Below, piece by piece: positions 6,101 to 26,085 of a DNA stretch of 64,000 bases. How positions within the stretch are numbered: the stretch's first letter is position 1; each line of letters starts with the position of its first letter. Both the position numbers and the translations under genes were made by a program. This DNA is from a virus: positions 32,001 to 96,000 of the IMG/VR virus record IMGVR_UViG_3300045988_001753; one strand, given 5' to 3'. The notes under the pieces are model-generated. The model was not told the DNA's origin and did not search any database. It saw nothing but the letters and a program-made list of their open reading frames with translations.

Positions 6101-9100
6101 TAAGGAGGTTCATGCTCCTGCCCTTAGACTGAATACTAAGGCTACTTATAAAGGTGAGAGAATTGGTAGGGACTGGGAAAGAACCATCTACTTGAAGGAT
6201 GATGAGATAGTATCTTCTGTACTTGAAGACATCAAGACTGTACTTGATGAAAGGGTTAGAAGAAATGAAATGACCAAGATAGACAGAGATAATATCATCA
6301 GCAAGTTTAGAAATGTGAATGTAGCAGATGCTCAGGCATATAGAAGTTTGAGTTCCTATAGGGCAATACTTGGCATGTCAGGTCAGTGGACAGATGATAT
6401 GGAGCAGGCATATAACAACTTCAAGAATGGAGATTGGAATATTAAAGACTTCAATATCATTTGGCAGACTAAGAAGCCTTATGTTTATACACAAGTCAAT
6501 AATAACAGTGGCATTGAAGGTCATACTGGAATTAAGACTCCTGTACAGCATAAGAACTCAGAGTTCCTATTACTTGCTATGCACGAACTAATTGCTGGTC
6601 CTTTAGGAAGGTCAGGTAAGCTGAAAGCCATAAATAAGTTTATGGAGGATAATCAGATTGATGTAGTTCAGTTTGAATCTACTACTAAGGTTGGAAAACA
6701 AGGTGTAATAGATTTGAATGATGTTAATACAGAGGCTGATGTAATCCAAAGACTTAAAGATACCACAGGTATTGGATTTGGTAATGAGAATCCTAATGTA
6801 GTACATAAGGTATCTTATGAAGATTATGGTATTCAGACTGCAACTCCTGAACATGCTATTGATGCAGTTCAGTTAGTAGGTACTCAGATTAGAAAGTTAA
6901 TTACTGCTGACATCTCTGATGACACAATCATTGAGGTTAATGGTAAGAAGATGACTAAGAAAGAGTGGCTTGACCTGTATAATGCTATCAATACAGAGAA
7001 TATTCTTCAAGCATTTGCTGATGTAGATAAGATATTCAAAGACCCAAAGAAGGTAGAGGAAATCTTACTTGAAGAGATAAGAGGTAATCAAAGATATGGT
7101 ATGGATATGATGAGGGCTTGTACTCTTGATGAGAACAATAACTTCAATATACCTCTCTTTGACCCTGTGCAATCTCAAAGAGTACAGACACTTCTTAATA
7201 GTGTAATCAAGAGTAGAATCACTAAACAGAAGATTAGAGGAGGAGCTTTAATTCAGGTGTCTGATTATGGCTTAACTGACCAACTGAGTATTGTATTCAA
7301 AGATAAGAATGGCAATCCTTTGAATTACGAACTTTACAAAAAGAAGTATCCTAATGCTACAAGAGAAAGCTATGAAGAATTTGTCAAGAATGCCCAAAAG
7401 GAAGGTAAGTTGTCTATCATGTATCTTGAGTGCTATATGCCTGCATATAGTAGAGAGTTTTATGAGCCTCTCATGGACCCAAATACTCACCAGCTTGATG
7501 TAACTAAACTTCCTGAGGATTTGAGAAAGTTGATTGGATATAGAGTTCCAACAGAGGATAAGTACTCAATGGCTCCTCTGTATATTAAGGGATTCCTTCC
7601 TCAACAGAATGGTTCTGCAATCATGCTTCCTGCTGAGATTACTACTCTATCAGGTTCTGACTTTGATGTGGATAAGATGTATATCATGTTGCCAGAGTTT
7701 AGAATACTGGATAGGTATAGAATCAAGGATGCTTGGGATGACTTCTATACTGACCCAGCTAATGCTGACATTGTAGAAGAAATTGATAGGAACATAGGAA
7801 TTGCTTTTGAAGACTATCAAAGAAAACACCCTGAGGATGAGCTTGATATAGATGATTATATTGAGTTTGTTCAAGACCAAGGTGTCAGAAAGTACCAGTT
7901 CTCTGAAACTGCAAGGGACAGATTCAAGGAGTGGTTCAAGTCAAGAAAAAAGCAATACTCTCTGGGTAAGGGTAAGATTGTAAAGGTAAAGTATGACTTC
8001 AACAAGTCTCCACAGGAGAATAGTCTTGAGGCAAGAAATAACTTGCTGATAGATATGATGTATGGAGTCCTGACTAATGCAGATACAGCTTCAAAGATTC
8101 TTAACCCAGGTGGTTTTGACTATCAGAAGAAGTCTGCAAGAATAATGACTATTCTCAATGATTCTTATGAGAGTGATTTGGTTAAGGCTCTAAATGAAGG
8201 TGGTGTTAAGTTTAATAAGACTATTAAAAGGGCAGGAAAGGAAATAAAAGCCCCAATATCTTCCTACCTTTTTGACTTGCCATTAGAGTTATCTAATGAG
8301 GAGAGAGAGGAAAGGAAGAAGAAAGGGGAGCCTTTCATAAGTCTTACTGAATTAGCAGAGAAAACAAAGGTCAAAATGGACCCATTATCACCAAGAACTC
8401 AAGTAATGTTACATCAACAGAACATGACTGGTGCTAAGTTGATTGGTATTTATGCCAACCATAATGCAAACCATGCTTTGATGCAACATACTCAGTTGGC
8501 TTTGGATGAAGAAAATGGCTCATTTGTATTGAATGGAAAGAGACTTACATCTCTACATGATATTATGAATGGTGACAAGGAATTTATCTCAAAGAATAAT
8601 GCTGGATTCTTGGCTGCTTCTGTGGACAATGTTAAAGACCCTGTGCTTGCAGCACTTAATCAGAATACTTTCACTGCTGATGCTTCTATGCTTCTTTCAA
8701 GATTAGGTTATAATCCTATTGAGATAGGTCTGCTAATGATGCAGCCTATAGTTCAAGAGATTACTCAGACCTATTTTAGAGAGAGTAGAGAAGGTAAAGG
8801 TAAAGATACCATCATTGATGAAGTATTGGATAAGTATAAGGAGAAGGCTGCTCTTAATAATGACTTGACTTATGATAACTACAAGAATAATAGCTTCTAC
8901 ATTGAAGAGCTTGCAGATAACATAATGCTTGCTAAGGAAGCTGTTACTGACAGGTCTCAGACTTCTGATTTCAGAAAGATTGAGTTCTATCAGAAACAAG
9001 TTGCAGTTGGATATTTGTTCAAGAGAATTATGAACTCTGCTGATGCTTTGGGACAGTTAGTACAGGCTACAAGGTCTGATACCCAAGGAGGTGCTGCTGG

Positions 9101-10601: not shown

Positions 10602-10604
10602 GAT

Positions 10605-13600
10605 ATGGCAAGAAGTTGTGCAATTATTCCAAAGGTAAAGAATAGAAATGGTCAAGTAGTGGACAGCAAGTTATTTAAGGACTTGCTGTCCTTCACTTCA
10701 AACAATAGAAGTGAGGCTACAAGACTATATCTTATCACAAAAGCTGACTCTTTTATAAGAGATTGGAATCCAAGGCTAACATTAGATGAAAACAATGAAC
10801 CTACATTGAGAAGTTTGCTAAAGCAGACTAATCTCAGTAAAGTCATTCCAGAAACTAAAGTACTTGAGAGACTTAATAGGGAGATTGGGTACTATAAGAA
10901 AGGAATGGACAGACCAGCCCTATGGGTAAACAATGATGAGAATTATCAAAAGTTGAAACAAAGGGCTATAGCCTTTAATCAGAACTCAGAGTATAGGGAT
11001 GATTATGTGGCTAATATAGTTAAGATTCAAGACAGTGAATCTCCAAGAGTATTCATTGGAGTAAAGGTTGAGAAAAGAAACAGGTTTAACTCTATTAATG
11101 CAGATAAGATGGAATACAATGAAAACCTTAATAACAGGTTGAGGGGTATTCTTGAGTCTCATGGAATAGGGATAGGTGCTTTGACTGACCTTGAAAAGAG
11201 AATGGGTGTTCATGGTGTGACTGATTTTGATGTTGCAAGAAATGCAGCAAATGGTCTTGTTGAAATGATTAGGCTTGCTGATGGTATTCAAGGTGAAAGA
11301 GCACTTCCTGAGGAATTTGCACACTTTGCCATTGAAGCTATGGGAGATAATCCACTTATCACAAGACTTATCAATAATATATCTTCCAATGGACTGGCAA
11401 GAGAAATTATAGGTGAGGACTATGATACCTATGATACTCTATATCATAGTGATGAGATTAAGTTGGCAAAAGAAGCTGCGGGTAAATTACTTGCAAAGCA
11501 TCTTCTTCAAGGTGAGAATATCCCATCTGCTCCTTATAAGAATCTACTGCAAAGAGTAATCCAAGCAGTTAAGAATTTCTTTAAGAATATTAGTGCAAGT
11601 CCTATACAAAGAGCCATGAAGGAGGCTGACAAGAACTTTGGTTCTTTAGCGCAGCAAATACTTAATGGCAGCATGGATGAGGCTATTGATGTTAGCAATA
11701 TAGCTTCAAATGGGGTATTTTACAGTACCTCAGAGAGAGTGGCAAGAGATAAGAAGTTACTTCAAGGAATCATTGAGAATGAGTTGAAGAGATTGAAGAT
11801 TTATGAAAAGAGAAATCCTAATAGCCAGTTTAGTGCTAATCAAAGGTTACTAATTGATAGATTGGATATTGAATTAGCTGATAACAATGAGATTGAAGGT
11901 ATTTATACTTTTGTTGAGAATGCTCTTGAAGAATTAACCAAGGTAAGTGACAGGCTTACTATGCTACAAAATACTCCTGCTACTAATGTTAATGAGAGAG
12001 CCAGAGTACTAAGAGATGTCAGAAACTACTTGTATAGTTACAAGCATATTACTGATGATATTAGGAAGGCTCTTATTGATGAAGAGAAGTATGCAGACAA
12101 TAGATATGGTCAGAGAGTAAGGGTAGTATTGGACAATACAACTACATTACTTGGAGACTTGTTTGTTAGATACAACAATGTGGCAATGCCTCTCTTTGTT
12201 GATTTCATTAAACCTTTTGTAGGAGAGAGTATAACTGTTCCTTTTGGCAAGTTCAAAGGCAAGACTATGACTGCTGAAGACTTGGTTAAGATAGCTGACA
12301 AGGACATATCTTTCTTTGACAGATGGCTTGACTCTATGGCAGACTCTTCAGATTATATGCTGAAAGTTATGGACCAAGCTGTCAAGAAGAGTAAAGAAAA
12401 TGCAAGGTTGGAGACTATCAATGTTATGAAGGAGCTTCAAGCTGCTACCATTAAGTTAGAGCAAGCTGGAGTTAAGAGCACTGATTGGATGTTTGAAAGA
12501 GACAGTAAAGGCAATCTTACAGGTAATTATATCTCTGAGATTAATCAAGGTCTATTCAAAGAGAAAGTCAGGGAAATGTTCAAGTCTCTTAATGAGAAGT
12601 ATGGTAAGAATCCTGTAGGAGATAATGCAGAGAAGTACAGAAAGGAGAGACAAGCTTGGTTTGATGCTAATATGGAGGTAGTCAATGGAAAGAAGCAACC
12701 TAAAGTATCAATCTATGGCAATAAGGCTTATCAGAACTTGAATCCTGCCCAGAAAGAATACTACAACAAGATTATGGAGATAAAAGCCAAGCTGGATTCA
12801 TACCTTCCTGACAAGTACACTACCTTAACTAATGCAGTTAAAATCAGAAAGAACCTACTTGAAAGAGTAAAGGCATCTGATGGTGTAAAGTCAGGTAGTA
12901 CACAAGTATGGGAAGCTGTTAAAGACCAATTCATTAGAAGAACAGATGACACTGAGTTTGGAGATAGGGCTACAGTAAAGGACTTTGAAGGTAAAGAGGT
13001 GCAAGTACTTCCTATCTACTATACTAAGATGAAAGAGGGTGAAAGCCCTAATGACCTATCTACTGATATAGTATCTACTCTCACAGCTTATGCAGCTATG
13101 GCTAATGACTTCAATGAAATGAATAAAGTAATTGATGTTCTTGAGCTTGGTAGGGATATGCTAAAGGAGAGGGAGATTATACAGACAAGAGGTGGTAAAC
13201 CACTGGTTGAGAAGTTTAAGTCTGTAGGTAGGAGAGTAGAATCTACTCTCACTAAGTCTGGTGATGAAACAAGATTTATGCAGAGACTAAATGACTTCTT
13301 TGAGATGCAGGTCTATGGTAGATACATGGCTGATGAAGGCACATTTGGTAATACTAAAATTGATAAAGGAAAGGTGGCTAACTTTGTTAATAGGATGACT
13401 TCTCTTAATACATTAGCTGTCAATGTACTATCAGGTATTTCCAATGTGGCTACTGGTGGAGTTATGATGAGGATTGAATCTTTCTCTGGAGAGTTCTTTA
13501 ATGAATCTAATACTCTAAGAGCTGACAGGAACTATGGTCAAGCCCTACCTGAATTTCTTGCAGAGATTGGTAATAGAGTCAAGACAAGTAAACTTGCTTT

Positions 13601-14660
13601 GTGGGATGAATTATTCAATGTAATGCAGGAATATGAGACTGATGTTAAGGAAGTAAATTTTGACAGAAAGACTTGGTTCAGTAGAATGTTTGGTACCTCT
13701 GCTTTATTCCTTATGAATAATGCTGGTGAACATTGGATGCAGAATAGAACCTCATTAGCACTTGCAGATGCTTATAAAATGAAAGCTCCTGATGGTAAAA
13801 TAGTGTCTCTATGGGATGCTATGGAAGTGGTTCCTATTGATAAGAATAACAAGAAATTAGGTGCTAAGTTACAGTTAAAGCAAGGTTATACTAAGGAAGA
13901 TGGGTCTGCATTTACAAGAGATGATATTATAGCATTCAGTAGGAAATCTGCTGCTATAAATCAGAGAATGCACGGTATTTACAATAAGGCTGACAGAAGT
14001 GCAGTACAAAGGTTAGCTGTGGGTAGAATGGGTGTCATGTTTAGAAAGTGGATTAAGCCATCTTTGAACAGAAGATTCAAGTCTGCCACATATAACTATG
14101 ACTTGCAAGCATGGACAGAAGGTTACTATAATACCACAGGTAGGTTCTTGATGCAGCTTGCTAAGGAATTGAAAGAAGGTCAGTTTACATTAGCTGCAAA
14201 TTGGAACCAACTTTCCAAGACTGAGAAAGCAAATATCAAGAGAGCTGCAACTGAAGTAGGACACTTCTTAGCAGTAGCACTTGTACTTGGTCTTATGGAC
14301 TGGTCAGATGACAAGGATAGACCTTGGTTGGCTAAGATGGCAGAATATCAGGCAAGAAGATTATACACTGAATTAGGTTCATTGATTCCTGGACCTCAGA
14401 TGGTTGGAGAAGGATTGAAGATTATAAAGTCTCCTGCTGCTGGCATTAATACTCTTGAAAATACTCTTGATTTAATTGGACTTATGAATCCATTTAATTA
14501 TGAAGTATTTGCTGGAGAAGATGCTTTGATACAATCAGGCAGATATAAAGGAGAGTCTAAGGCAACAAGACTATTCTTTGAATCTCCACTTATTCCAATG
14601 AACAAAACTATTTATAGAGGTTTGCATCCTGAGGAAGGTATTCCATTCTTTAAGCAATAA
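10605..14660 (+). CDS. large vRNAP-block protein (likely virion/ejected protein), function unknown
   Basis: 1351-aa ORF starting 3 nt after the vRNAP stop. Has a hydrophobic segment near the C-terminus (HFLAVALVLGLMDW). No catalytic motif recognised. Confidence 0.5.
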   Translation: MARSCAIIPKVKNRNGQVVDSKLFKDLLSFTSNNRSEATRLYLITKADSFIRDWNPRLTLDENNEPTLRSLLKQTNLSKVIPETKVLERLNREIGYYKKGMDRPALWVNNDENYQKLKQRAIAFNQNSEYRDDYVANIVKIQDSESPRVFIGVKVEKRNRFNSINADKMEYNENLNNRLRGILESHGIGIGALTDLEKRMGVHGVTDFDVARNAANGLVEMIRLADGIQGERALPEEFAHFAIEAMGDNPLITRLINNISSNGLAREIIGEDYDTYDTLYHSDEIKLAKEAAGKLLAKHLLQGENIPSAPYKNLLQRVIQAVKNFFKNISASPIQRAMKEADKNFGSLAQQILNGSMDEAIDVSNIASNGVFYSTSERVARDKKLLQGIIENELKRLKIYEKRNPNSQFSANQRLLIDRLDIELADNNEIEGIYTFVENALEELTKVSDRLTMLQNTPATNVNERARVLRDVRNYLYSYKHITDDIRKALIDEEKYADNRYGQRVRVVLDNTTTLLGDLFVRYNNVAMPLFVDFIKPFVGESITVPFGKFKGKTMTAEDLVKIADKDISFFDRWLDSMADSSDYMLKVMDQAVKKSKENARLETINVMKELQAATIKLEQAGVKSTDWMFERDSKGNLTGNYISEINQGLFKEKVREMFKSLNEKYGKNPVGDNAEKYRKERQAWFDANMEVVNGKKQPKVSIYGNKAYQNLNPAQKEYYNKIMEIKAKLDSYLPDKYTTLTNAVKIRKNLLERVKASDGVKSGSTQVWEAVKDQFIRRTDDTEFGDRATVKDFEGKEVQVLPIYYTKMKEGESPNDLSTDIVSTLTAYAAMANDFNEMNKVIDVLELGRDMLKEREIIQTRGGKPLVEKFKSVGRRVESTLTKSGDETRFMQRLNDFFEMQVYGRYMADEGTFGNTKIDKGKVANFVNRMTSLNTLAVNVLSGISNVATGGVMMRIESFSGEFFNESNTLRADRNYGQALPEFLAEIGNRVKTSKLALWDELFNVMQEYETDVKEVNFDRKTWFSRMFGTSALFLMNNAGEHWMQNRTSLALADAYKMKAPDGKIVSLWDAMEVVPIDKNNKKLGAKLQLKQGYTKEDGSAFTRDDIIAFSRKSAAINQRMHGIYNKADRSAVQRLAVGRMGVMFRKWIKPSLNRRFKSATYNYDLQAWTEGYYNTTGRFLMQLAKELKEGQFTLAANWNQLSKTEKANIKRAATEVGHFLAVALVLGLMDWSDDKDRPWLAKMAEYQARRLYTELGSLIPGPQMVGEGLKIIKSPAAGINTLENTLDLIGLMNPFNYEVFAGEDALIQSGRYKGESKATRLFFESPLIPMNKTIYRGLHPEEGIPFFKQ

Positions 14661-14668
14661 TAGCAAAT

Positions 14669-14716
14669 AGGGAGAGTGAGTAAATTAAGTTTTACTCCTC
14701 TCCCTATTTTTTTTTT
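14669..14716 (+). terminator. rho-independent terminator of the + strand RNAP block
   Basis: Stem AGGGAGAGTGAGTAAA / TTTACTCCTCTCCCT followed by a T10 run (14707-14716). Confidence 0.8.
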
Positions 14717-14725
14717 ACATAAATG

Positions 14726-14782
14726 AAAGGGTCAAAAATACCCCTATACTAATTACAGCATAGGGTTATTCTTGACCCCTTT
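14726..14782 (-). terminator. nested hairpin downstream of the 2353-aa gene (candidate terminator)
   Basis: Outer stem AAAGGGTCAA / TTGACCCCTTT and inner stem CCCTAT / ATAGGG. On the minus strand it is followed only by a weak CATTTAT tract, so efficiency is uncertain. Confidence 0.45.
14729..14755 (+). repeat. 27-nt repeat copy 1 (GGGTCAAAAATACCCCTATACTAATTA)
   Basis: 25/27 identical to the reverse complement of 62713-62739. Confidence 0.85.
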
Positions 14783-14804
14783 ATAAAAAATTTCATCCTG
14801 CTGA

Positions 14805-17800
14805 TTAAAAGGCTATACACTTAACAGCTTGGTCTCTCTCCTTTTGAGAGATTGAATCAAACTTCTCTGCTGTCCAACCTTTCTTCAATAAATTCTCCTG
14901 CATAGAATCACTTAAAGTATTAAATGATGTAGTAGTTGAAGTAGTACCTCTCAATTCACTGATAGTAGGAACTTTGAATGTACTATCTGCATACTTACCC
15001 TCATTAATTCTTCTATAGTAATCTATTAGGGAAGGTCTAAAGTTATTCCAGTTAGTAACCTTAGCAAAGAGTTCCTTGAAGAAATCAAGTATTCTCTTAC
15101 CTAAGCCCCTATTCTGTCTTGTCATTACATACTCTCTGAAACCCTCTGCCATATCTTCCTCAAGAGAGAGATTATCTTTCTCACCATATAACTTTCTTGC
15201 TTCATCATATAATGCCTGTCTCTCATTATTGTCAAGAAGGAGATTAAATACAGCATGGAATGCTTCATGGTATGCAGTACCTTCAGCAGCTATGTCAGAC
15301 AATGTGATTACACCTTTATCAAATTGACCCCAAGCTAAGGCACCTTGTCTGCCTACTTTAATAAGACCTTTTACTACTTGTACTTTATCATTCTCACTTA
15401 ATTGAGGTAGCACTCTACTAATCCAATTAAGTTCCTTTTCCTGATTCCATACTGTAGCTTCTGTGTCATTTACTCTTCTTAGGGTAAATTCATCCTCAAA
15501 CTCTTCATCATGGTCATTTATTGCCTGTTCCTTTTGAGCAGTATAGGCAGCACCTGTCTGGGTATTACCTTGATTAATAGTTGCAGGAGTTTCCACAGTA
15601 GTGATAGGAGTAGCACTTACAGTAGGTACTGCATCAGGGTCAAACAATATAGTCTTTTCTGATGCTAAGTCTTTCATTCTTTGAGGATTACCTAATAAAG
15701 CCTTTCTCATGGAATCCTCAACTTGAGATTCACTCATACCTCCTTGTACAGGGTTATTCTTTATAAGTAAGAATGTTTTACCATTAGGGAATACTGCATA
15801 GTAATTATTTGAAGCTACATGAGATTCTTCTCCCTGTCTGCCAAATCCCTTGGTTATATTAGGAACCTTGGTTATATGGACATCTACTTCTGTAATACCT
15901 GCAATAGGAGTTAAATACCCTTTATGTAATTTACCATCCAACTCAAAGTAACCTACTCCCTCATCAGCATTATTCATACTGTGTTCAGGTGTCAAATCTT
16001 CAATAGGGTTCTGTGTCTCTAATGAAGTCTCAAAGATAGGTAATACTGTCTGAGCTTGTGCTGGAGTAGCAGGAGTTCCTGTAGATTTATCTACTTTAAC
16101 TGCACTTGCTAAAGGCACATTAACAGCAGGATTGTATGCAATAGGAATACCCTTTTCACTTTGTACTGCTGATACATTCTCCTTATCATAACTCAATACA
16201 AATGGCATTACAGCTAACTTAGTAACTGGTACACCATACTGAGATTCAAATAAGTTCTTGTAAGCAGAAAGTTGTAAAGTATAGTAATCCTTCGCACTCA
16301 TTCTCTGAGTAGCAGATGGAGTAGTAAAGTAATTAACCTTATGACCATATCTGTCTGTAAAGTCATAGAAGCTGTATCTACTTGTCTTTACATCATAGAT
16401 TCTAAAGTTACCATCCTTATCAACAGAGAGAATATCAACCTCACCTGCAACTCTTGTACCATCAGGATATTTCTGGAACAATACAATATTGTCAGCAAGG
16501 AATCTTTCTCCCATTTGTTCCATGTTTGACTTAACTCTATTAAGAGTGGTAATTAAATCTATGAAAGCACTCTCTGACATATTAGATGGTCTTGCTATCT
16601 TAGATACATCTCTTATAGTAAAGTACTGTCTAATAATACTATCTATTGCTGAGCCAGCATCAAGTGCTCTTTGTGAATTAGTACCAGACATCTTATCTCT
16701 TACTATATTCACAATAGTATCTCTACTCTTAGCATCAGTCTTTCCTTGATAACCATCAAGATTAATCTTATACTTGTTTTCAAGGAACTTCAAGTAATTG
16801 TCAAATTGAGTAGGAGTATCAACTAACTGTGATAGCTTGGTTCTTACTTGTGTTAGAGCCTCTGTTTGCTTAGGAGATTCTACCCAATTAGAACCTAATC
16901 TACTATGCACTCTACTATATTGGTGGTATTCACCATCATCTTCAAGTACATAGTAAAACTCACCATCAGTTCTTGTCTTGTCTATTCTCTTTTGGTTCTC
17001 ATATATTTCACTGATAACCTCCTTAGACTTGGCAACTCTATCTTCTCTTTCTTTCTTCCTACCTGCAATAGTATCCTTAACATCTTGTGCCTCTTGACCA
17101 CTGAGATATGTCTGCTTGCTTCTATCAAGTACTTTACCATCAGGAGTAAGAACCTTGTTATCTACCATCATTGAAGAGTTAGTAGAATCCCCGAAGTTAT
17201 CTTGTGCCCAAGCTAAATCAAACAATATTCTGTTACTGTCAGTAACTTCTACAGTCCTACCTTGGTCATCTCTGATAGTGTTTGTCTTTAAGTCTACATA
17301 GTATGGCTTATTTGAGAATATAGATACTATTCTTGTGCCTGCAATAGCACCCTCAGTACCACCTACAGGAGTTTCTACTTTCCTCTTAGGTTGAGGAGCT
17401 ACAGAAGCTGGACTTATAGCCTGATGTAAGTTACCTTCATTATCAAAGTAATCAGTTGTAAACCAATTACCTCTTACTGAAGCCTCAGTAATATTTGAAG
17501 TAAGGATATTAGAGTTTATCAACCTATTGTTGTATGCACCTTCATTTATTCTCCTTGTGCTGACCTGCAAAGGAAGATTAAACTTAATAAGGTGTCCAAG
17601 TATTTCATTGTATATATCCTCAGGATTCTTAGGAGTACCTAATGCACTTGTATCTCCTAAATCTTCAAGAGCAGTTACATCAAAGTTTATACCCCCAATC
17701 TCTGCACTCTTACTACTTGTAGAGAAATATACATCATACTTATCCTCCTTGATTTGCTCCTTTCCATTAATGATTACCTTCTCATAAGTACCATCTGGCT

Positions 17801-20800
17801 TTCTTACCTTCTTACTGATAACAATACCATCACCTGCCCTACTACTAAACCAAGTAACCATAATATCCTGCATATACAAGTCTTGTGCCAAGTCTTGCAT
17901 TGCAGCAGATACATCATCCTGTGATGTAGCAGTTGATAACTTAGTAATGGCATTCTTTATATCTTCTCCAACAGGAGTAGAACTTATGTTACTATCATTC
18001 AGATTAAACTCTTCATTGTTGAAGTGCTTAACCCTTACAGCAGCAGGAGAATACTTACCAGCTCCATTAGGTATAAGCAGATATAATCTACCTTCCTTTT
18101 GGCTCATATCCACTGGCTTGATAATAAGACTATCATCAATCTTACCATTAGTGGTAAGAACACCATTCTTTATAATACCAAAGACAGGCTTTCTATCAGT
18201 TGAAGATACATTAGGTATCTCAGATAGACTTCTCTCAGTATTACCATAGGGAATCCTACCTACCATTACCTTAGATACCTTTGTAACAGGTGTGGCAATG
18301 AACTTACCAGTCTTATTTTGCCTGTTAGCATATTCACCTCTTATCTTCTCTTCAAGACCCTTCAAACCCTCATACCTTGAAACACTATAATCAGACTCAT
18401 CCAAACTACCTACTACTTGGTTGTTTCTTTTGTCTACAATGAAGATTGTATTCTCATTATAGTCTGGGTCAATCATAAAGCCAAGTTCATCACCTGCCTT
18501 TAAGTTACCCTCATTTACATATCTGAATGCTCCTTGGTCTCTTAGATAACCATAAATGCCAGAGAAGTCTACATTCTTTTCTCTCTCACTTACTACAATA
18601 TCAAATGGTCTAAAGTCTCCTTCCTTACTTGCCTCTATATGCAGTTCAGGTATAGCAGGTCTATAGAATTGATTAGAAGTATCTCTACTTGGTCTCTGTG
18701 GAGTTTCTACCCTTTCATTGGCTTTCTTATTCTCCTCATTAACCATCTCAGCAGTTATATTACCTACAGGTAATTCTGTTGTAGGTAAGTCCTCACTACT
18801 TGTTACAGTAGGAGTAGTAGATGTACCACTATCCCCCGTAGTATCTCTTCTATCATCACCTCTTACAGTCCCCTCTCTTTTCTCTACAGGCTTCTTATAT
18901 TCAGGTGAGAATCTATCCTTGAATCTATTGTCATTATTTACCTGAGACATTGCATTCTGCAAAGCATATTGAGCCTCTTGGAATCTTGTTGCAGACAACT
19001 CAACATCACCCTCAGAATCTTCATCAAAGGCATTCTCATTATTGATATAAATTGAGTTGGGATTAGCCAACTGTTCAAGGTTTTCAGAGTTACTGAACTG
19101 GTCTTGAAGGAGCTTCATAGCATCTTGTTTAACCTGTGGTTCTGCATCTGACTCATTAAGAACTCTTCTCACCTCATTATTGTATTGTGAAGTTTCTCTG
19201 TAGTTCTTAGCCATCTCACTACCTTCATCCTCAAGTTCTTTTAGAACTCTATCCCTATTCTCTATATCATCTTGGGTATCTATGATACCCCTGAACTCCT
19301 GTAAATTCTGTGCAGCATTCAAAGATACTTTCAAGTCATCAGACTTCTTCTTAGCTTCTTGTTGCACAGCTTGTTCATCAGCTCTTGCATGGTCTTCTGC
19401 TTGCTTTTGAGGATTTTCAAGATACTCTTTCAGCTTTGCATTATATGTCTTTGAGGCATTACCTAACTTAACAATATCATTTAGCTTAGTTGTAATATCT
19501 TCTTTCTCATCTGCACTAAGTACAGTCTCATCTACCTCATTAATTTCCTTGATAAGACCATCTACAAACTTAGGATTAGTTGCCAATGTATGAGCCAATG
19601 TCTTATCATCCTGACTTCTTACAAGATTAAGAGTATTTATTGCACCTTGAATAGCTCTTACATTCTCATCTGCTTGTCTGTATCTGTCAGTTAAATCAGC
19701 ATGAGTTTGACCTTCAAAATCTCTTATCTGCTCATTGAACCTAAGGAATGAATCTAAGTTACCTAATACACTACCTATTGCAGATTTTACTTCTCCAGAC
19801 ATAGCTGTTGCCCTTTCAGCCCAGTTGCCTATCTGAGACTTCATCCATGTCAATTCTTCAAGCTGGTCATCTGATAATTGCTGACCTGTCTTAATATCAA
19901 GCTCATCTTTTATCTTCAGATAATTGTTGATAGTGTTGGTCATTTCATCATGGTTCTGCTGCAACTTCTCTATCATTTCCTGCTTGCCTTCTGGAGTAGC
20001 ATACATAGGATTACCATTCTTATCAACAAATGGACCTACCTTAGAGCCATCTTCAAGAGTAGTTGTAGTGTTTTCCACAATAGAGGCAAGATTTTCATCT
20101 GATGTATCAAATGCTGTGTTAATTAAGGTAGTGAGGTCTTCCATTCTACCTGCACTATCAAACATGGCAATATCAGATACTAATTGAGCATGTTCTGCAT
20201 TCTTGAAGCTGAACTCATCACCTTCCTCAGCAGCTCTATTCATATCATTCTGATACTTATTATGCCTGATAAGACCTTGATAGTAGTTCTTAAATTCAGG
20301 AGAGTTTATCCTGCTATTCATGTAGTTAGCAATCTCATTCTCTCTTGCTATCTTCTCATTATAGTCTCTCCATTCATTTATGGCACCACCCTCAATAGTG
20401 ATTGGAGACTGAATACCACCTTGTGCATTTCTTACACTTCTGAATCTTGGCATACCTAATGCACCTGTCAAAGAACCAATAAAGAACTCTTCCCATACAG
20501 AGCCATCATTTACTGTCTCATTGATTCCCTCAGCAAATGATTTAGTCCAACTTAGTGTTTCTTGAGAAGCTTCTGGGTCAGTCTTTGACTTATAGAAGTT
20601 GTTTACATCAGTAGAGTAATAATTACCTGCTATTCTACTTGCAGCACCCTGTGCCATTTCCTCAGTACCTTCAGATAATGCACCCTTTGTTATTGCAGTA
20701 GCAGCACCTAATCTTGTAGTACCAGCAGTATATTCTCCTGCCTTACCTACTATATTAGTAGCCTTTCTTGCAGTCTTGAATCCATTAGCATATAACTTGC

Positions 20801-21866
20801 CAAACTGGATTATATTAGATGCAGTAAGGATAGGTATATTCATAAGCAAGTCTGCATTACCCATCTTTAGTCTATCCTCATTCAGTTTACCAAGTGCTGC
20901 ATTGTAAGCTTCTCTTTCCCTTGCAATAGCATCCTGATATTTTACATAAGCTGGGTCTACAAACTGATTGCCTTCTACACCACTTCTTACAAGCTCCTTT
21001 CCTGCATTAGCTTCATATTCAGCCTGTATTGCATCTAACCTTTCCCTTAGACTGTCATCAAGCTGTGCTTTATGAAGCTCAAACCAATCCTTACTATTGT
21101 TGAGTGCTTCAATTCTGCCCTCATTTACTGCTGAGATAGTAGCACCTACAGCAGTATTAACTATTGCTGGAGCCTTTGAAGACTTAGCAATAGCACCAAT
21201 GAGTTGAGGTAGCTTAGTTACCTTCAATCCAGCAGCAGTAACACCACCACTATAGAAAGCACCTACTGTGAAACCTAAGTTCTTGATAAACTTATCACCT
21301 AAGAAGTTAGCAGTGAAGATATTTTCATACCAAGGCTGCTCTTGTTCTGCCCTTGTATAATAGTTAGGTAATGCCTGCTCAGACCATTCATTAACAGACT
21401 GCATAGCTTTAGAGAAGTCATTATCCCAAAGACCAGACCATCTGCCTTCACCTATTGCAGTACCAGCTCCAAATATCAAACCTACAGTACCATCAAGGAA
21501 AGTAGTACCTGCAAGTATAGCACCTTTAGCAAGACCTGCTCCTATTTGTGCATACCAAGGCTGATTCTCTGCTCTTATATCTCCCAGTTCTTGGAACTGA
21601 GCTTCTGTTGCAGTAGGTTCATCAAACATACTCTCACCCCAAGGTGTAGCAGTTCCCTCTAATGAAGTTGCAACCATTTGCTCACCATGTGCCCTTGCAT
21701 CATACAATGAAGTAGGAGCAGTATTTGCTCCTACATTCATGCTGAATGACTGAAACTCAGGACTAAGGTTAGTGTATGGCTCTTGATTTGCTTCCTGCAA
21801 ATCTCTGAAAGTCATTGGACCACTCTTAGTAATATCTATATCCTTTACTTTAGTTTCTTTTGCCAT
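14805..21866 (-). CDS. giant multidomain (polyvalent-type) virion protein with PD-(D/E)xK nuclease and C-terminal HExxH zincin domains
   Basis: 2353 aa. N-terminal Gly/Ala-rich hydrophobic segments and a long coiled-coil region. RecB/Cas4-like motif series: GEVDIL (nt 16428-16442), IYDVKTS (DVK at 16386-16394) and YTLQLSAY (16261-16292). HEAFH at nt 15255-15269, followed by ...MAEGFREY. Confidence 0.7.
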   Translation of the reverse strand: MAKETKVKDIDITKSGPMTFRDLQEANQEPYTNLSPEFQSFSMNVGANTAPTSLYDARAHGEQMVATSLEGTATPWGESMFDEPTATEAQFQELGDIRAENQPWYAQIGAGLAKGAILAGTTFLDGTVGLIFGAGTAIGEGRWSGLWDNDFSKAMQSVNEWSEQALPNYYTRAEQEQPWYENIFTANFLGDKFIKNLGFTVGAFYSGGVTAAGLKVTKLPQLIGAIAKSSKAPAIVNTAVGATISAVNEGRIEALNNSKDWFELHKAQLDDSLRERLDAIQAEYEANAGKELVRSGVEGNQFVDPAYVKYQDAIAREREAYNAALGKLNEDRLKMGNADLLMNIPILTASNIIQFGKLYANGFKTARKATNIVGKAGEYTAGTTRLGAATAITKGALSEGTEEMAQGAASRIAGNYYSTDVNNFYKSKTDPEASQETLSWTKSFAEGINETVNDGSVWEEFFIGSLTGALGMPRFRSVRNAQGGIQSPITIEGGAINEWRDYNEKIARENEIANYMNSRINSPEFKNYYQGLIRHNKYQNDMNRAAEEGDEFSFKNAEHAQLVSDIAMFDSAGRMEDLTTLINTAFDTSDENLASIVENTTTTLEDGSKVGPFVDKNGNPMYATPEGKQEMIEKLQQNHDEMTNTINNYLKIKDELDIKTGQQLSDDQLEELTWMKSQIGNWAERATAMSGEVKSAIGSVLGNLDSFLRFNEQIRDFEGQTHADLTDRYRQADENVRAIQGAINTLNLVRSQDDKTLAHTLATNPKFVDGLIKEINEVDETVLSADEKEDITTKLNDIVKLGNASKTYNAKLKEYLENPQKQAEDHARADEQAVQQEAKKKSDDLKVSLNAAQNLQEFRGIIDTQDDIENRDRVLKELEDEGSEMAKNYRETSQYNNEVRRVLNESDAEPQVKQDAMKLLQDQFSNSENLEQLANPNSIYINNENAFDEDSEGDVELSATRFQEAQYALQNAMSQVNNDNRFKDRFSPEYKKPVEKREGTVRGDDRRDTTGDSGTSTTPTVTSSEDLPTTELPVGNITAEMVNEENKKANERVETPQRPSRDTSNQFYRPAIPELHIEASKEGDFRPFDIVVSEREKNVDFSGIYGYLRDQGAFRYVNEGNLKAGDELGFMIDPDYNENTIFIVDKRNNQVVGSLDESDYSVSRYEGLKGLEEKIRGEYANRQNKTGKFIATPVTKVSKVMVGRIPYGNTERSLSEIPNVSSTDRKPVFGIIKNGVLTTNGKIDDSLIIKPVDMSQKEGRLYLLIPNGAGKYSPAAVRVKHFNNEEFNLNDSNISSTPVGEDIKNAITKLSTATSQDDVSAAMQDLAQDLYMQDIMVTWFSSRAGDGIVISKKVRKPDGTYEKVIINGKEQIKEDKYDVYFSTSSKSAEIGGINFDVTALEDLGDTSALGTPKNPEDIYNEILGHLIKFNLPLQVSTRRINEGAYNNRLINSNILTSNITEASVRGNWFTTDYFDNEGNLHQAISPASVAPQPKRKVETPVGGTEGAIAGTRIVSIFSNKPYYVDLKTNTIRDDQGRTVEVTDSNRILFDLAWAQDNFGDSTNSSMMVDNKVLTPDGKVLDRSKQTYLSGQEAQDVKDTIAGRKKEREDRVAKSKEVISEIYENQKRIDKTRTDGEFYYVLEDDGEYHQYSRVHSRLGSNWVESPKQTEALTQVRTKLSQLVDTPTQFDNYLKFLENKYKINLDGYQGKTDAKSRDTIVNIVRDKMSGTNSQRALDAGSAIDSIIRQYFTIRDVSKIARPSNMSESAFIDLITTLNRVKSNMEQMGERFLADNIVLFQKYPDGTRVAGEVDILSVDKDGNFRIYDVKTSRYSFYDFTDRYGHKVNYFTTPSATQRMSAKDYYTLQLSAYKNLFESQYGVPVTKLAVMPFVLSYDKENVSAVQSEKGIPIAYNPAVNVPLASAVKVDKSTGTPATPAQAQTVLPIFETSLETQNPIEDLTPEHSMNNADEGVGYFELDGKLHKGYLTPIAGITEVDVHITKVPNITKGFGRQGEESHVASNNYYAVFPNGKTFLLIKNNPVQGGMSESQVEDSMRKALLGNPQRMKDLASEKTILFDPDAVPTVSATPITTVETPATINQGNTQTGAAYTAQKEQAINDHDEEFEDEFTLRRVNDTEATVWNQEKELNWISRVLPQLSENDKVQVVKGLIKVGRQGALAWGQFDKGVITLSDIAAEGTAYHEAFHAVFNLLLDNNERQALYDEARKLYGEKDNLSLEEDMAEGFREYVMTRQNRGLGKRILDFFKELFAKVTNWNNFRPSLIDYYRRINEGKYADSTFKVPTISELRGTTSTTTSFNTLSDSMQENLLKKGWTAEKFDSISQKERDQAVKCIAF

Positions 21867-21869
21867 ATC

Positions 21870-23675
21870 TTAATATCCATAAGGATTAAACTCTTGTTCT
21901 TTTGTCTTATTCTGTACTCCTAATTGAGAATGGAATAAGTAGGCTTGCTGTATAGCCTGTGCATATTGTTGCTGTGCATAAGTAATTTCATCTGGAGTAG
22001 CCTGATGTACATTACCTCTTGCATCAGTATATTGCCCTGTATTGACTACTTGTTGCCATTGATTTGCAGCAGCCATTGCCCTATCTCTATTCTGCTCATT
22101 AGTTGTATTGATACCAGCAGGCATTCTGAATCTTCTCACATTGCCCTTGTCATCTTGTATCATTACAGTAGTACCATAAGGACTGAATCTTGTAGCAGTT
22201 ACTTTGTATTTATCACTCTTCAAGTCTTCCATAGTGATTTCCTCACCTGTATCCCTGAATTGCTTAGACTTGCTATCATAATCTACCTCTTTAAGACTTA
22301 ATCCTCTACCAGCAGTCATAATAGCATCCTTCATATCACCCTGTTGGGCACTTGCAATAGGGTAGTCATACTCAGTAACTCTTGTAGCATCATATCTTGC
22401 AGTTCTTGCTGCTGGAGAATTATTAGCATATCTATTCCATACATTACCAAGATTGCCAGGCTGCCACTTGCCCTTTGTCACACTATAAGCACCTATGCTG
22501 TCCATGAACTGCCTGAATGCAGTAGGAGTGAATTTCTTACTGCCATTCTGCATTTGTGTTTCTACATTCATAAGTCTTGCAGTACCACTACCAGAACCTG
22601 CTGATGTTACTCTTGGGGTAGCATTTCTGGTATATTCCTGCCAACCAGCCCAAGTCATTCTCATCTGACCATGATTATCTTTGTAGAAGTACTTAGAGTA
22701 TCTTTTCATATCCTCCTTATACTTCTTCTCATCCTTACTTAGTTCTCTACTACTGTAGATATTCAAAGGATTGATAGCTAAACTATTAAGCCTTGCTTGT
22801 CTCTGCTCTTCTGCCTTTCTTGCAGCAGCTCTTTTCTCTGCCCTAATCTGCATAGCTTCTTGTTCAGCCATCTTAGCTCTCCAATTATCAAGAGTCTGGT
22901 ATTGAGTCTCACCAACTGCACTCCATAGACCTTGCTTAGCATAGTCAATAGCCCTTGCAATAGTGGCTTGGTCTCCCCAGTTCCTAACTCCACTTGAATT
23001 AATGGCATCTTCAACAATTCTTGTAAGTTGAGGAGCAGCATTAGGATTATCCTGTATAGCCTGTAATACTGCTTGAGAACTGAAGCCTTTCTGCATCATA
23101 GTCTCATAGTATGAATTACCTAAGATGCTTCTCCACTTCCTTGGCTTCTCTTGCATTTCCTTAGCCAATGCAGATGCAGCACTTGCAGCCTGTGCAGTAA
23201 TTAACTTACCTGAATATGCTTCATAAGCTAATTGAGGATTCCTTATGTAATCATCAAGACTTGTAGTTGCAGCTCTTCTACTCAACATCAATGTTGGGTC
23301 TTGAAGGAGTGCTTTTTGTTGCTCTTCTGCTTGCTTCTGTCTTGCTGTATAGGCTTGTTCAATAGGAGTTATCTCCTTACTGTACCTTGCTCTCATATTG
23401 AGCATATCCCTTCTACTTGCAGCATTAAGTCCTTCTCTTGCTAACTGACCTGCTTGCTCTTCAAGGTCATTTGCATAGGTCTTGTACATCTTGTAAGCAT
23501 AAGGGTCAGTCTGTTCATTAGCCATTTCCTCCCATACACTTGCCTTAGTAGCAAGCTCTCCATACTGGTTCTCCAACTCTTGATGAGCCTGAGTAGCCAT
23601 CAAGGTTGGAGCCAGCATCTCTTGATAAGAGAATGGCTTGAATTGTGAATTTATTACTAAACTATAATTAGCCAT
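21870..23675 (-). CDS. hypothetical virion (cargo/ejection-type) protein
   Basis: 601-aa ORF packed between two other large late genes (1-3 nt spacers). Q/A-rich helical sequence. No motif recognised. Confidence 0.45.
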   Translation of the reverse strand: MANYSLVINSQFKPFSYQEMLAPTLMATQAHQELENQYGELATKASVWEEMANEQTDPYAYKMYKTYANDLEEQAGQLAREGLNAASRRDMLNMRARYSKEITPIEQAYTARQKQAEEQQKALLQDPTLMLSRRAATTSLDDYIRNPQLAYEAYSGKLITAQAASAASALAKEMQEKPRKWRSILGNSYYETMMQKGFSSQAVLQAIQDNPNAAPQLTRIVEDAINSSGVRNWGDQATIARAIDYAKQGLWSAVGETQYQTLDNWRAKMAEQEAMQIRAEKRAAARKAEEQRQARLNSLAINPLNIYSSRELSKDEKKYKEDMKRYSKYFYKDNHGQMRMTWAGWQEYTRNATPRVTSAGSGSGTARLMNVETQMQNGSKKFTPTAFRQFMDSIGAYSVTKGKWQPGNLGNVWNRYANNSPAARTARYDATRVTEYDYPIASAQQGDMKDAIMTAGRGLSLKEVDYDSKSKQFRDTGEEITMEDLKSDKYKVTATRFSPYGTTVMIQDDKGNVRRFRMPAGINTTNEQNRDRAMAAANQWQQVVNTGQYTDARGNVHQATPDEITYAQQQYAQAIQQAYLFHSQLGVQNKTKEQEFNPYGY

Positions 23676-23676
23676 A

Positions 23677-26028
23677 TTACTTCTTCTTAATAGTTAAATA
23701 ACCACCCTTAGCTTTCTTTTTCTTAGCTTTATTGGCAGCATCTCTTACTTCCTTCTTCTCTGCTTCACTAAGACTTTCATATCCATTCTTATATGTAACA
23801 TTACCCTTGCTATCAATAGAGTAGTATAGTGCAGGATTACTCATAATCATATTTCTACTATACTCTTCTCTACCAATATCTCCAAGAGAATTAAAGAAGT
23901 TAGTAAGGTTAGCACTCATACTTGCACCTCTTCTTGCATCAACAGCATCTCTTACTGCCATAGCCTGTGCAACACCACTTAGTCTTGAACTTCTTGCCTT
24001 TAATGCAGCTTCTTGATTTGCCATTGCAGCCTTGAGTCCCATCTCAGCATTAGCCATGTTAGTACCTCTATTAAAGGTCTCAACAGCTTGTCTTTGTGCC
24101 AAGTTATACTCTTCAGCCTGTCTTGCAAGGTCTCCTAATCTACCTTGAGCATTATAATCTGCTGCAAGCAAGGCTGCATTTCTTGAAGGACTTGTAGTAT
24201 TCATAATAGCCCTTCTTGTAGCACCTGCCTGTGCATTAAGTTTATTCAAATAGAAGTTTCTGTCAAAAGGTCTATATTGTAAATAGTTACCTATTGGAGT
24301 ATATCCTACTGGAGTATAATTACCTGCTTGATTAGCTGCTTCAAGTATTGTATCTGCACTTGTATAGTCTGGTCTACTAAATAAGTTCTGACCTAATCCT
24401 ATTGCAGCTCCTACTACAGGGGCATATCTTAGCCAAGTCAGCTTGCTATTATTATCCCCTTTATCACCCTCATCAGTACCTGACATGGCTTCATTCCATA
24501 CATCTTCTGCACTGATAGGTTCCAATAAAGTACCATAGTCTTGCCAATCTCCATAATCTACACCATCTAAGAAGTTAGGCATATCACCAAGACCATCAAA
24601 TAATGTACCCATTTTACCACCATGAGCATATTGTACTCCTTCTTGACCTACTTGATTCTGTTGTCTTACAGTCTCTTGGGCTTGTTGTAGTCTGGACATA
24701 GAGCTTAGAAGTCCTCTCTTGCTTATTGGGTCATTAGGTCTTTCCTTTGATTCATCACCTAACTTCTCTGCTATTGCAGCAAAGGAGTATCCATCATAAG
24801 ACTTAGGGAGATTAAAACTCTCCAATAGACCACCATCAGCAAATAATCTGTTACTGAATACATAGTCATTGAATATAACCTCACCTTGCTCTACAAGATT
24901 TGGGTTTCCCTCAGCATCCATTCCCATAGGTACACCCTCCATTGGATTCTCCTCATGGGTTCCACCATTACCAATTACTCTAAGACCATTATCCCACTCA
25001 GCACCATGAGTAAGTAAATCTCCTCCAAAAGCATGATGCCATTTCCTTGCATTAGCAGCAAAAGTAGCTCTCTTCCTTACAGCAGGGTCACTACTTCTTT
25101 TACCCCTTGCAATACACTCTGAAGTAACTTTACCCCCACAATACTTAGTGAATTTACCTCTATTCTCAGGCTTGATATGTATCTTACCTCCTTTAGCAAA
25201 AGTATTCAATTCTGATGATTCAAATGAGTTAGGTAATGAAGTCAGCTTACCTTTATTTGCAGCATTAAGAGCCTTAATGCCTAAGTTCTCCTTAGCTAAC
25301 TCATAACCTATTGCCCCACTTCCATATCCTCCCCATATACCAAGAGGACCACCAAAGGCAGCAAAGCTTGCCATAGCATTAAGGTCAGACTGAGTATCTG
25401 CTGCATCTGCTGCATTCTCATAAGAAGTCAATGCTCTATTTCTTGCAATATCCTGTTGCTTCTTTAGTTCCTTATATTTGTTTTTAGCCTTATTGCTAAA
25501 CCAACCATCTTTACCAATATCTGATTTAGTAAAGTCTTTGCCAAAGTCCTGATTAGCCCACTGGTCCATAACTGAATCAGCACTACTGCTATCTACCATA
25601 ACAGTATTTATAGCTTTGTTGCTTCCTTCAACTTCAGCAATCTTCTCCTTATTTAACTTGGAGCCAAACATCCTATTTGTAAGACCTCCAATAATACCAG
25701 TACCAGCAGATATGATGCCTCCAAGTACAGGATTAACTGCACTTACTGCACCACCTATAGTGCCACCAATATTACTGATTGCACTACCTGCACCTGATTC
25801 AAGTCCTCCACTAATAGCACCACCTGCAATATTACCCACTGCACTACCTATGCCACTTGCTAAGCCTCCTTTCAGCATACCAGCAACATTGCCTCCACTG
25901 AAAGTGCCTTTCAAGTCAAAAGGCTTAGTTCCACCTAAAGCATTCTTGAAATCACCACCCCAACTATAGTAATGAGGGTTGTATGTAAATGGTCTGTTAG
26001 ACTTTCTTATAACTTTTCTTTTAGCCAT
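23677..26028 (-). CDS. glycine-zipper-rich virion (cargo/ejection-type) protein
   Basis: 783 aa. The N-terminal ~100 aa consists of GxxxG-type repeats (GGLASGIGSAVGNIAGGAISGGLESGAGSAISNIGGTIGGAVSAV...). Has its own consensus promoter. Confidence 0.5.
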   Translation of the reverse strand: MAKRKVIRKSNRPFTYNPHYYSWGGDFKNALGGTKPFDLKGTFSGGNVAGMLKGGLASGIGSAVGNIAGGAISGGLESGAGSAISNIGGTIGGAVSAVNPVLGGIISAGTGIIGGLTNRMFGSKLNKEKIAEVEGSNKAINTVMVDSSSADSVMDQWANQDFGKDFTKSDIGKDGWFSNKAKNKYKELKKQQDIARNRALTSYENAADAADTQSDLNAMASFAAFGGPLGIWGGYGSGAIGYELAKENLGIKALNAANKGKLTSLPNSFESSELNTFAKGGKIHIKPENRGKFTKYCGGKVTSECIARGKRSSDPAVRKRATFAANARKWHHAFGGDLLTHGAEWDNGLRVIGNGGTHEENPMEGVPMGMDAEGNPNLVEQGEVIFNDYVFSNRLFADGGLLESFNLPKSYDGYSFAAIAEKLGDESKERPNDPISKRGLLSSMSRLQQAQETVRQQNQVGQEGVQYAHGGKMGTLFDGLGDMPNFLDGVDYGDWQDYGTLLEPISAEDVWNEAMSGTDEGDKGDNNSKLTWLRYAPVVGAAIGLGQNLFSRPDYTSADTILEAANQAGNYTPVGYTPIGNYLQYRPFDRNFYLNKLNAQAGATRRAIMNTTSPSRNAALLAADYNAQGRLGDLARQAEEYNLAQRQAVETFNRGTNMANAEMGLKAAMANQEAALKARSSRLSGVAQAMAVRDAVDARRGASMSANLTNFFNSLGDIGREEYSRNMIMSNPALYYSIDSKGNVTYKNGYESLSEAEKKEVRDAANKAKKKKAKGGYLTIKKK

Positions 26029-26046
26029 ATCATACTAATTTGTTTG

Positions 26047-26077: not shown

Positions 26078-26085
26078 GGATATTA

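Follow-up and report, generated by a model that had tools for sequence, protein, structure and literature searches.

A giant cargo protein of a crAss-like phage with a predicted RecB-family nuclease and a probable zincin-type metallopeptidase

What does a crAss-like phage inject besides its DNA, and what might one giant virion protein do once it is inside the cell? The question is raised by a single, uninterrupted open reading frame of 2353 codons in a 64,000-nucleotide stretch of viral DNA (positions 32,001 to 96,000 of IMG/VR record IMGVR_UViG_3300045988_001753; hereafter the window, in whose numbering all coordinates are given unless another phage is named). The DNA comes from a crAss-like phage of the Steigviridae/Asinivirinae. 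No viruses of the human gut are more abundant than the crAss-like phages, and giant virion cargo proteins take up about one-tenth of their genomes; to our knowledge, only the polymerase core among these proteins has a known function. A preliminary description, made from the sequence, saw in this reading frame a virion protein combining a RecB/Cas4-type nuclease, a C-terminal zincin and a membrane-active N terminus. The best explanation that we can offer, and one that we think reasonably probable, is that the gene encodes an ortholog of gp47 of the Bacteroides phage ΦcrAss001, a giant, capsid-packed polyvalent protein that would be ejected with the DNA into a Bacteroides cell and would carry both an intact nuclease and an intact zincin.

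14805..21866, minus strand: complete open reading frame, 2353 aa, ortholog of ΦcrAss001 Gp47

In a BLASTP alignment, the protein is 47% identical to ΦcrAss001 Gp47 end to end, across 2373 columns, and according to the annotation tables, the order of genes around it is the same in ΦcrAss001, cr85_1 and PhiCrAssBcn20; by this full-length similarity and conserved gene order, we assign it to the gp47 orthologous group. The nearest nucleotide record to the gene is bajarodcaudo virus 1, with about 85% identity over 79% of its length, followed by the Kahnovirus cr85_1 with about 83% over 76%. Gp47 itself has been found in purified ΦcrAss001 virions by mass spectrometry (PMC6235969; PMC10172136), and Bayfield 2023 (PMC10172136) lists it at its full size of 262.5 kDa, places it in the capsid cargo zone, proposes that it is ejected partly unfolded and presents an AlphaFold 2 (AF2) model of it that is alpha-helical. 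Proteins gp65 to gp67 of Cellulophaga phage phi14:2 are likewise present in virions (Drobysheva 2020). Because the ortholog was detected in virions, a virion location of the window protein, as supposed in the preliminary description, is supported by orthology. The reading frame and every motif string quoted there are indeed present, with small corrections to the ranges: GEVDIL ends at 16445, not 16442, and YTLQLSAY lies at 16260-16283, not 16261-16292, those of HEAFH and DVK being correct.

The first of the two candidate enzymes occupies a domain in the C-terminal third of the protein, with its motifs in the expected order:

16137..16949, minus strand: predicted RecB-family PD-(D/E)xK nuclease domain, aa 1640-1910
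16641-16655, minus strand: nuclease motif I, G1738-D1742
16428-16445, minus strand: nuclease motif II, GEVDIL, aa 1808-1813, GEVD with D1811
16386-16394, minus strand: nuclease motif III, DVK, D1825-V-K1827, in IYDVKTS, aa 1823-1829
16260-16274, minus strand: nuclease motif IV, Q1865-Y1869, within YTLQLSAY, aa 1862-1869

Membership of this domain in the RecB family of PD-(D/E)xK nucleases is well supported by profiles, predicted structure and conservation. Residues 1674-1887 match the PHROG 298 exonuclease profile with an E-value of 1.3e-9, and the Pfam family PDDEXK_1, which scores 18.5-21.8 bits on the window protein, just below its cut-off of 22, is matched by 26 of 34 diverse homologs (E<=0.01). 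An alignment of 34 sequences covering aa 1640-1910 (alignment A2) was the basis of an AF2 model with a predicted local distance difference test (pLDDT) score of 92 and a predicted TM-score (pTM) of 0.81. Compared with the PDB by Foldseek, the model found AdnA, human EXO5, RecE, the Cas4-family ACE1, Cas4 SSO0001 and AddA, at E-values from 7e-5 to 1e-3 and a probability of 1.0; sequence identity among the top 20 matches is 11-16%, and the TM-scores are modest, 0.22-0.40, since the query has an extra helical subdomain at its N terminus. A profile of the domain searched against PDB sequences gave nothing relevant, the matches coming from the fold comparison alone. The residues expected to form the active site are kept almost throughout the homologous segments, counted here and below among representatives no more than 50% identical to each other: D1811 in 88 of 89, D1825 and K1827 in 83 of 89 each, Q1865 in 86 and Y1869 in 83, and the motif-I-like G[ST]xxD (D1742) again in 83. 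Such counts matter, as a loose D..(D/E)xK..QxxxY pattern turns up in 47% of composition-matched shuffles of the protein, so that the motif string alone is not evidence; we take the nuclease motifs, and the HExxH discussed below, as real because they are conserved across these diverged representatives and come with profile and structure evidence.

The profile match, the fold matches and the conserved motif residues thus bear out the RecB part of the earlier "RecB/Cas4-type" label; the Cas4 part has to go. An iron-sulfur cluster is a defining feature of Cas4, AddB and EXO5, and the four cysteines that it needs cannot be supplied here: the only cysteine of the whole protein is residue 2350, outside the nuclease domain. 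With Cas4 membership ruled out in this way, the domain is RecB/RecE-like and predicted to be catalytically intact and Mg-dependent. Set beside AdnA, AddA, RecE, EXO5, SSO0001 and ACE1, it shares the predicted fold and the ordered motifs G[ST]xxD, hhD, DxK and QxxxY, but differs in its additional N-terminal helical subdomain, in its lack of cysteines and in being embedded in a virion protein.

The second candidate enzyme lies close to the C terminus:

14937..15509, minus strand: zincin-like metallopeptidase module, aa 2120-2310
15255-15269, minus strand: HEAFH, aa 2200-2204
15144-15161, minus strand: Glu helix, E2236-E2237-D-M-A-E2241 (MAEGFREY is aa 2239-2246)

By composition, HExxH is expected 0.016 times in the protein, and it is present in only 1.6% of its shuffles. 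In an alignment of 41 sequences (alignment A1), H2200, E2201, F2203 and H2204 are invariant and E2236, E2237, A2240, E2241, F2243 and R2244 at least 90% conserved; in the wider sample of 120 homologous segments, the three residues of HExxH are kept in 119 (H), 118 (E) and 120 (H), E2237 in 117 and E2241 in 111. The AF2 model of the module (pLDDT 88, pTM 0.80) has an N-terminal helix, a small sheet, the HExxH helix, an inserted helix and the ExxAE helix, in that order; counted within the module, HEAFH falls in predicted helix 78-90, after strands 43-71, and both E2237 and E2241, candidates for the third zinc ligand of a gluzincin-type enzyme, fall on predicted helix 113-133. It is by the same topology of helix, sheet, HExxH helix and Glu helix that Iyer 2017 defined the core of the metallopeptidase (MPTase) domain of polyvalent proteins. 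Among the predicted viral structures of BFVD, the strongest counterparts of the module are giant proteins from many crAss-like phages, with E-values of 1e-22 to 1e-5, and weaker matches (0.003-0.2) are to proteins named for polyvalent domains, IrrE-like peptidases and an M48 peptidase; proteins named "large polyvalent protein associated domain" come in at 0.02-0.2. Taken together, the conserved residues and the predicted fold make residues 2120-2310 very probably an active zincin-type metallopeptidase, while their likeness to characterised zincins is suggestive at most. The earlier claim of a C-terminal zincin stands as regards the conserved HExxH, the Glu helix and the zincin-like predicted topology, and falls short on a significant match to a solved zincin or a Pfam family: searches of Pfam, PHROG and NCBIfam left aa 2120-2310 without a model, and no Pfam peptidase family was matched, MPTase-PolyVal, to which the preliminary description had looked, included.

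How these two modules are combined in the family was mapped on homologs. A search with the C-terminal 1200 residues against 1.84 billion representatives at 50% identity gave 980 homologs, and a full-length search of a set of 5.8 billion proteins gave only relatives that are 96-100% identical. Mapped on 150 representatives, 117 of which are at least 1800 aa in length ("long homologs"), the window protein turned out to be one arrangement among many: within the long homologs, the nuclease is present in 83 and absent from 34, the zincin is found in 95, a segment resembling ART-PolyVal in 37 and a conserved tail of about 40 residues in 72. The place of such inserts and the tail lie at the C-terminal end of the protein:

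14931..14951, minus strand: position of a variable payload slot, aa ~2306-2312, essentially empty here
14808..14930, minus strand: conserved C-terminal tail, aa 2313-2353, ending ...KGWTAEKFDSISQKERDQAVKCIAF; found in 91 of 150 homologs

In 90 of the 91 tail-bearing homologs, the tail lies within five residues of the C terminus whatever the length of the insert before it, and in 77 homologs the stretch separating the end of the zincin from the tail is 6 to 1088 residues long, compared with about 10 in the window protein. The tail may be a packaging signal or a signal for docking, perhaps at the portal. In the cr85_1 ortholog, the closest one with an annotation, an ART-PolyVal domain, an ADP-ribosyltransferase, sits between zincin and tail (Pfam E 7e-22; ~18142-18534 inside the coding sequence 11158-18714 of that phage), and the same domain was recovered in five of seven long inserts tested (Pfam E 1e-16 to 1e-26); unlike the cr85_1 ortholog, the window protein has no such insert. 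Other inserts in the slot (P0151, P0148, P0172, P0122) contain extra HExxH...ExxAE modules, for example LLHELIHGV...EMIAEMANP, as well as an HD-like stretch and the P-loop-like motif GHPALGKTT; Pfam assigns none of them.

The modules also occur outside gp47 orthologs of this size. In IAS virus, a homologous nuclease module sits in gp057 (7288-12216), the ortholog of gp49, at 9001-9483 (BLASTP E 6e-12), which suggests that the nuclease cassette moves between different giant cargo proteins, and in the Suoliviridae, the zincin module forms part of proteins 4300-4900 aa long. As an aside, the Suoliviridae giants of cr4_1 and cr113_1 (~5401-7000) show several in-frame stops under translation table 11, consistent with the stop-codon reassignment reported in these phages.

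This combinatorial gain and loss of modules is the behaviour of polyvalent proteins, of which the window protein, as read from its sequence, is a minimal version. Polyvalent proteins join at least two unrelated enzymatic domains in one phage polypeptide, and here the nuclease and the zincin share one reading frame; delivery together with DNA we infer from the virion data on gp47, and association with the hallmark domains is found in orthologs and not in the window protein itself. The polyvalent framing of the preliminary description therefore fits a family in which orthologs carry ART-PolyVal beside the zincin and the modules are reshuffled among the long homologs.

From these pieces, a course of events can be sketched. 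The protein would consist of an N-terminal scaffold (a Gly/Ala-rich block and some 900 helical residues), a middle region, the nuclease, a linker, a zincin of the MPTase kind and the 40-residue tail. It would be a late product stored in the cargo zone of the capsid, as shown for the ortholog, and would leave through the tail partly unfolded, as Bayfield et al. inferred. Once in the host cell, the zincin, working in cis or in trans, could cut giant cargo proteins and so free or activate their modules, an auto-inhibited virion RNA polymerase possibly being among the targets; the nuclease would act within minutes of the onset of infection, its substrate being most likely DNA of the host or of competitors and less likely the phage's own ends. 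We are evenly divided on whether processing is the role of the zincin, in line with the proposal of Iyer 2017 that MPTases process cargo polypeptides and that of Drobysheva 2020 that a zincin in polymerase-associated proteins may switch the polymerase on and that fused polyproteins undergo cleavage; proteolysis directed at the host seems an unlikely role for it. For the nuclease, an attack on host or competitor DNA is likewise close to a balanced proposition, and processing of the phage's own ends is a minority possibility. The anti-defence or host-takeover function proposed in the preliminary description is conjectural.

Several observations weigh against this explanation. On the side of the peptidase, Foldseek found no match of the zincin model in the PDB below an E-value of 0.48, the best being SPRTN, although the top non-significant matches (SPRTN, MATCAP, Certhrax) are themselves zincins; a profile search of the PDB aligned HExxH...EExFAExF with the M34 peptidase PPEP-1/Zmp1 at a non-significant E-value of 0.39-0.55. 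Alignment of the module by hhalign with the MPTase region of 11 N4-like virion polymerase sequences (alignment A4) gave an E-value of 4.8e-4 with a probability of 32% over 34 columns that take in one strand and HExxH only, a result that by its E-value speaks for kinship with these MPTases and by its probability and coverage is suggestive at best; the probability was 10% against N4 alone and 1% against phi14:2 gp65. On the side of the mechanism, we found no mention of gp47 cleavage in Bayfield 2023, where the protein is listed at full size, and the MPTase-bearing virion polymerase of N4 is packaged unprocessed (Iyer 2017). The payload slot of the window protein being empty, cleavage would have less to release than in its relatives.

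A wider version of the same explanation would make the gp47 family a modular chassis of the Crassvirales for effector delivery, in which an N-terminal ejection module and the C-terminal tail would bracket a slot for ART-PolyVal, extra zincins or P-loop- and HD-like payloads, the zincin would free these payloads and the nuclease would be a cassette mobile between gp47 and gp49, representing a PD-(D/E)xK class of DNase outside the 2017 catalogue. We regard this reading of the family as less likely than not.

A different explanation starts from the neighbours of the gene:

21870..26028, minus strand: cargo proteins encoded immediately upstream, one gp46-like (601 aa) and one gp45-like (783 aa), from open reading frames and synteny with ΦcrAss001 Gp45 and Gp46, the cargo role being that given in Bayfield 2023
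10605..14660, plus strand: gp49-like giant virion protein, 1351 aa, convergent, without DxDxD and without HExxH
3129..10601, plus strand: gp50-like protein of 2490 aa, convergent, the catalytic virion RNA polymerase, with SDFDVDKM at aa 1511
14661..14804, no strand: intergenic region of 144 bp on which the gp49-like and gp47-like genes converge, holding GC-rich hairpins with T runs behind them

The preliminary description was right to place the gene at the end of a cargo run and convergent with the polymerase block: genes for a gp44-like muzzle/stabilisation protein and gp45- and gp46-like proteins precede it on the same strand, and it converges on the gp49-like and gp50-like genes. The virion RNA polymerase has its catalytic motif, DFDVD, in the 2490-aa reading frame, which matches phi14:2 gp66 with an E-value of 5e-40 (BLASTP). 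The gap between the converging genes has two terminator-like sites where 0.2 would be expected, and these are probably the terminators of the converging transcripts.

Given such company, the protein could belong as a structural subunit to the holoenzyme of the virion RNA polymerase, its nuclease and zincin serving transcription, for example in template processing or polymerase maturation, instead of being effectors in their own right. The gene always adjoins those of gp49 and gp50, ΦcrAss001 gp47 is labelled "putative RNA-polymerase subunit" in GenBank and elsewhere "RNA polymerase-associated protein", gp47, gp49 and gp50 are packaged together, the three proteins are fused in some phages (Drobysheva 2020), and the nuclease module can reside in the gp49 ortholog. 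We nevertheless think this explanation unlikely. No DxDxD (D.D.D) motif is present in the reading frame 14805-21866, which rules out a catalytic polymerase subunit; gp47 is transcribed late, unlike gp49 and gp50, which are middle genes (PMC8375218); in published work, the polymerase gp66 of phi14:2 works on its own; and the free gain and loss of ART, nuclease and zincin among orthologs is typical of conflict effectors and untypical of a conserved subunit of a holoenzyme.

Similarly unlikely, in our view, is that the nuclease spares host DNA and instead resects the phage's own terminal repeats or ends after entry, for circularisation or recombination-primed replication in the manner of RecE or lambda Exo. 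RecE is indeed among its close fold matches, as are AdnA and AddA, both of them nucleases of end resection, genomes of the ΦcrAss001 type are described in the literature as having direct terminal repeats, and Iyer 2017 considers virion DNases as helpers of early replication. However, an essential step is not expected to be dispensable, and the module is missing from 34 of the 117 long homologs; other PDDEXK nucleases are encoded in the replication block of crAss-like phages (Yutin 2021), and no annealase partner was identified in this analysis.

An outward-acting zincin raises the question of the N-terminal part of the protein, for which the preliminary description had suggested membrane activity:

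21087..21584, minus strand: conserved N-terminal block, aa 95-260
21450-21551, minus strand: Gly/Ala-rich hydrophobic segment AQIGAG...TAIG, aa 106-139
aa 198-214, minus strand: second hydrophobic string quoted in the preliminary description, GFTVGAFYSGGVTAAGL

The block is the best conserved part of the protein, with 73-81% column identity among four orthologs. It is present in 113 of the 117 long homologs and also in phi14:2 gp67 (profile E 1.7e-17), and its profile has no match in Pfam or the PDB. Its hydrophobicity is moderate: the most hydrophobic 19-residue window reaches 1.49 on the Kyte-Doolittle scale, the family mean has its maximum of 1.33 at aa 116-134, and the middle of the segment is occupied by Asp125, which at least 70% of homologs retain. 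Membrane activity of the block is thus possible and, on these values, not demonstrated. A weak match of aa 85-279 (~21030-21612) to PfkB/6-phosphofructokinase-II, with an E-value of 0.002 among PDB sequences and 17.8 bits in NCBIfam against a cut-off of 353, recurs in the two libraries and is probably compositional; it was the only match of the whole protein to the PDB and NCBIfam by phmmer.

A zincin acting on the host envelope or peptidoglycan, or on defence proteins at entry, with the N-terminal block inserting in the membrane as part of an ejection conduit, is to us quite doubtful. Drobysheva 2020 does raise possible digestion of peptidoglycan, Iyer 2017 leaves room for MPTases that act as effectors on proteins of the host, the Gly-rich hydrophobic segment at aa 116-134 is conserved along with its block, and the gp45 ortholog encoded nearby carries a transmembrane-protein annotation. 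The segment's modest Kyte-Doolittle values (1.3-1.5) and its conserved Asp125 speak against a conduit, though, and an outward role finds no signal of a peptidoglycan-peptidase family in Pfam and has to reckon with a module that sits at the opposite, C-terminal end of the protein, a long way from the N-terminal block. Finally, that one or both enzymatic modules are inactive relics, mere structural filler of the cargo protein, we consider very improbable: one homolog (P0196) has a degenerate nuclease motif and the gp49-like protein of the window appears to have lost the HExxH that phi14:2 gp65 has, but the near-invariance of the catalytic residues among the diverged representatives (118-120 of 120 segments for HExxH, 83-88 of 89 for the nuclease) is what selection on catalysis would be expected to leave.

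The account that we favour is still that of a gp47 ortholog that would be packed in the capsid and ejected, with two predicted enzymes; its remaining parts are the following:

18867..21029, minus strand: helix-rich region low in Pro and Gly, ~aa 280-1000, from composition and a crude heptad scan
16950..18614, minus strand: conserved middle region, aa 1085-1639
15510..16136, minus strand: variable linker, aa 1911-2119, with many S, T, P and Q residues, the least conserved part of the C-terminal half (0.35-0.49)

The continuous coiled coil of about 500 aa reported earlier is not borne out in the helix-rich region and is rejected, the heptad scan giving only short, scattered stretches of 29-53 aa between aa 494 and 992. 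The middle region is conserved in 102 of the 117 long homologs and has no match in Pfam, PHROG or the PDB.

Compared with known systems, the closest is ΦcrAss001 gp47, which shares the N-terminal block, the nuclease, the zincin, the C-terminal tail and the position after gp44-46, convergent with gp49 and gp50; the difference is one of genus, the window phage standing near the Kahnovirus cr85_1. With the polyvalent proteins of Iyer 2017, such as the N4 virion RNA polymerase gp50 with its C-terminal MPTase and P1 DdrB, the protein has in common that a giant, virion-delivered polypeptide joins unrelated enzymes, the core topology of HExxH and Glu helix, association with a virion RNA polymerase and, in its orthologs, ART-PolyVal. 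In contrast to those proteins, its DNase is of the PD-(D/E)xK type, whereas Iyer 2017 gives ParB-like DNases as the DNase of polyvalent proteins, with no others alongside, and does not mention crAss-like phages; unlike in N4, the polymerase of the window phage is on a separate polypeptide and of the two-barrel type.

Minimal and M34-type zincins (PPEP-1/Zmp1, SPRTN/SprT and IrrE/ImmA-like proteins) share with the module an HExxH helix after a small sheet and an ExxAE helix downstream. In PPEP-1, it is EEFFAESF that aligns with the ExxAE helix of the window protein, the match being statistically non-significant in both sequence and structure (E 0.3-1). The module presumably also resembles anthrax lethal factor. 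The HHpred result for N4 in Iyer 2017 points to lethal factor as well.

Among the phi14:2 proteins, gp67 shares the N-terminal block and the place beside the polymerase but has neither nuclease nor zincin, and gp65, the ortholog of gp49, has HExxH...HEFISE, with HEIMH at aa 245, and is not detectably similar to the window zincin; Drobysheva 2020, citing Yutin 2018, calls gp65 a zincin-like protease. The phi14:2 loci are g065 at 10997-15262, g067 at 21807-27200 and g070 at 30360-32141, the product of the last, gp70, having two HExxH motifs. At about aa 230-250, the gp49-like protein of the window reads PEEFAHFAIEAMG, roughly at the N-terminal position, without alignment, of the zincin motif of phi14:2 gp65; this stretch may be a degenerate remnant of a zincin.

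Overall, the observation of the preliminary description is confirmed and its interpretation partly supported, and specialists will find little surprise in either. The gene is a further member of an already described family, for which the packaging of gp47 in virions, PDDEXK domains in giant proteins and a zincin in polymerase-associated proteins have been published: Yutin 2021 reported a PDDEXK domain in a large transcription-block protein of crAss-like phages, and Drobysheva 2020, again citing Yutin 2018, a zincin, which makes the earlier suggestion that the domain pairing is new too strong. In the literature searched, we did not find the pairing of zincin and RecB-like nuclease on gp47, the payload slot with its conserved C-terminal tail or a nuclease cassette that moves between gp47 and gp49, some of which the figures of Yutin 2018 may hold. 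Predicted nuclease and protease sites that are intact, together with the swapping of modules at a defined slot, translate into concrete residues, constructs and assays. These bear on what crAss-like phages inject besides DNA, on how their virion polymerase may be switched on and on how they may cope with the defences of Bacteroides.

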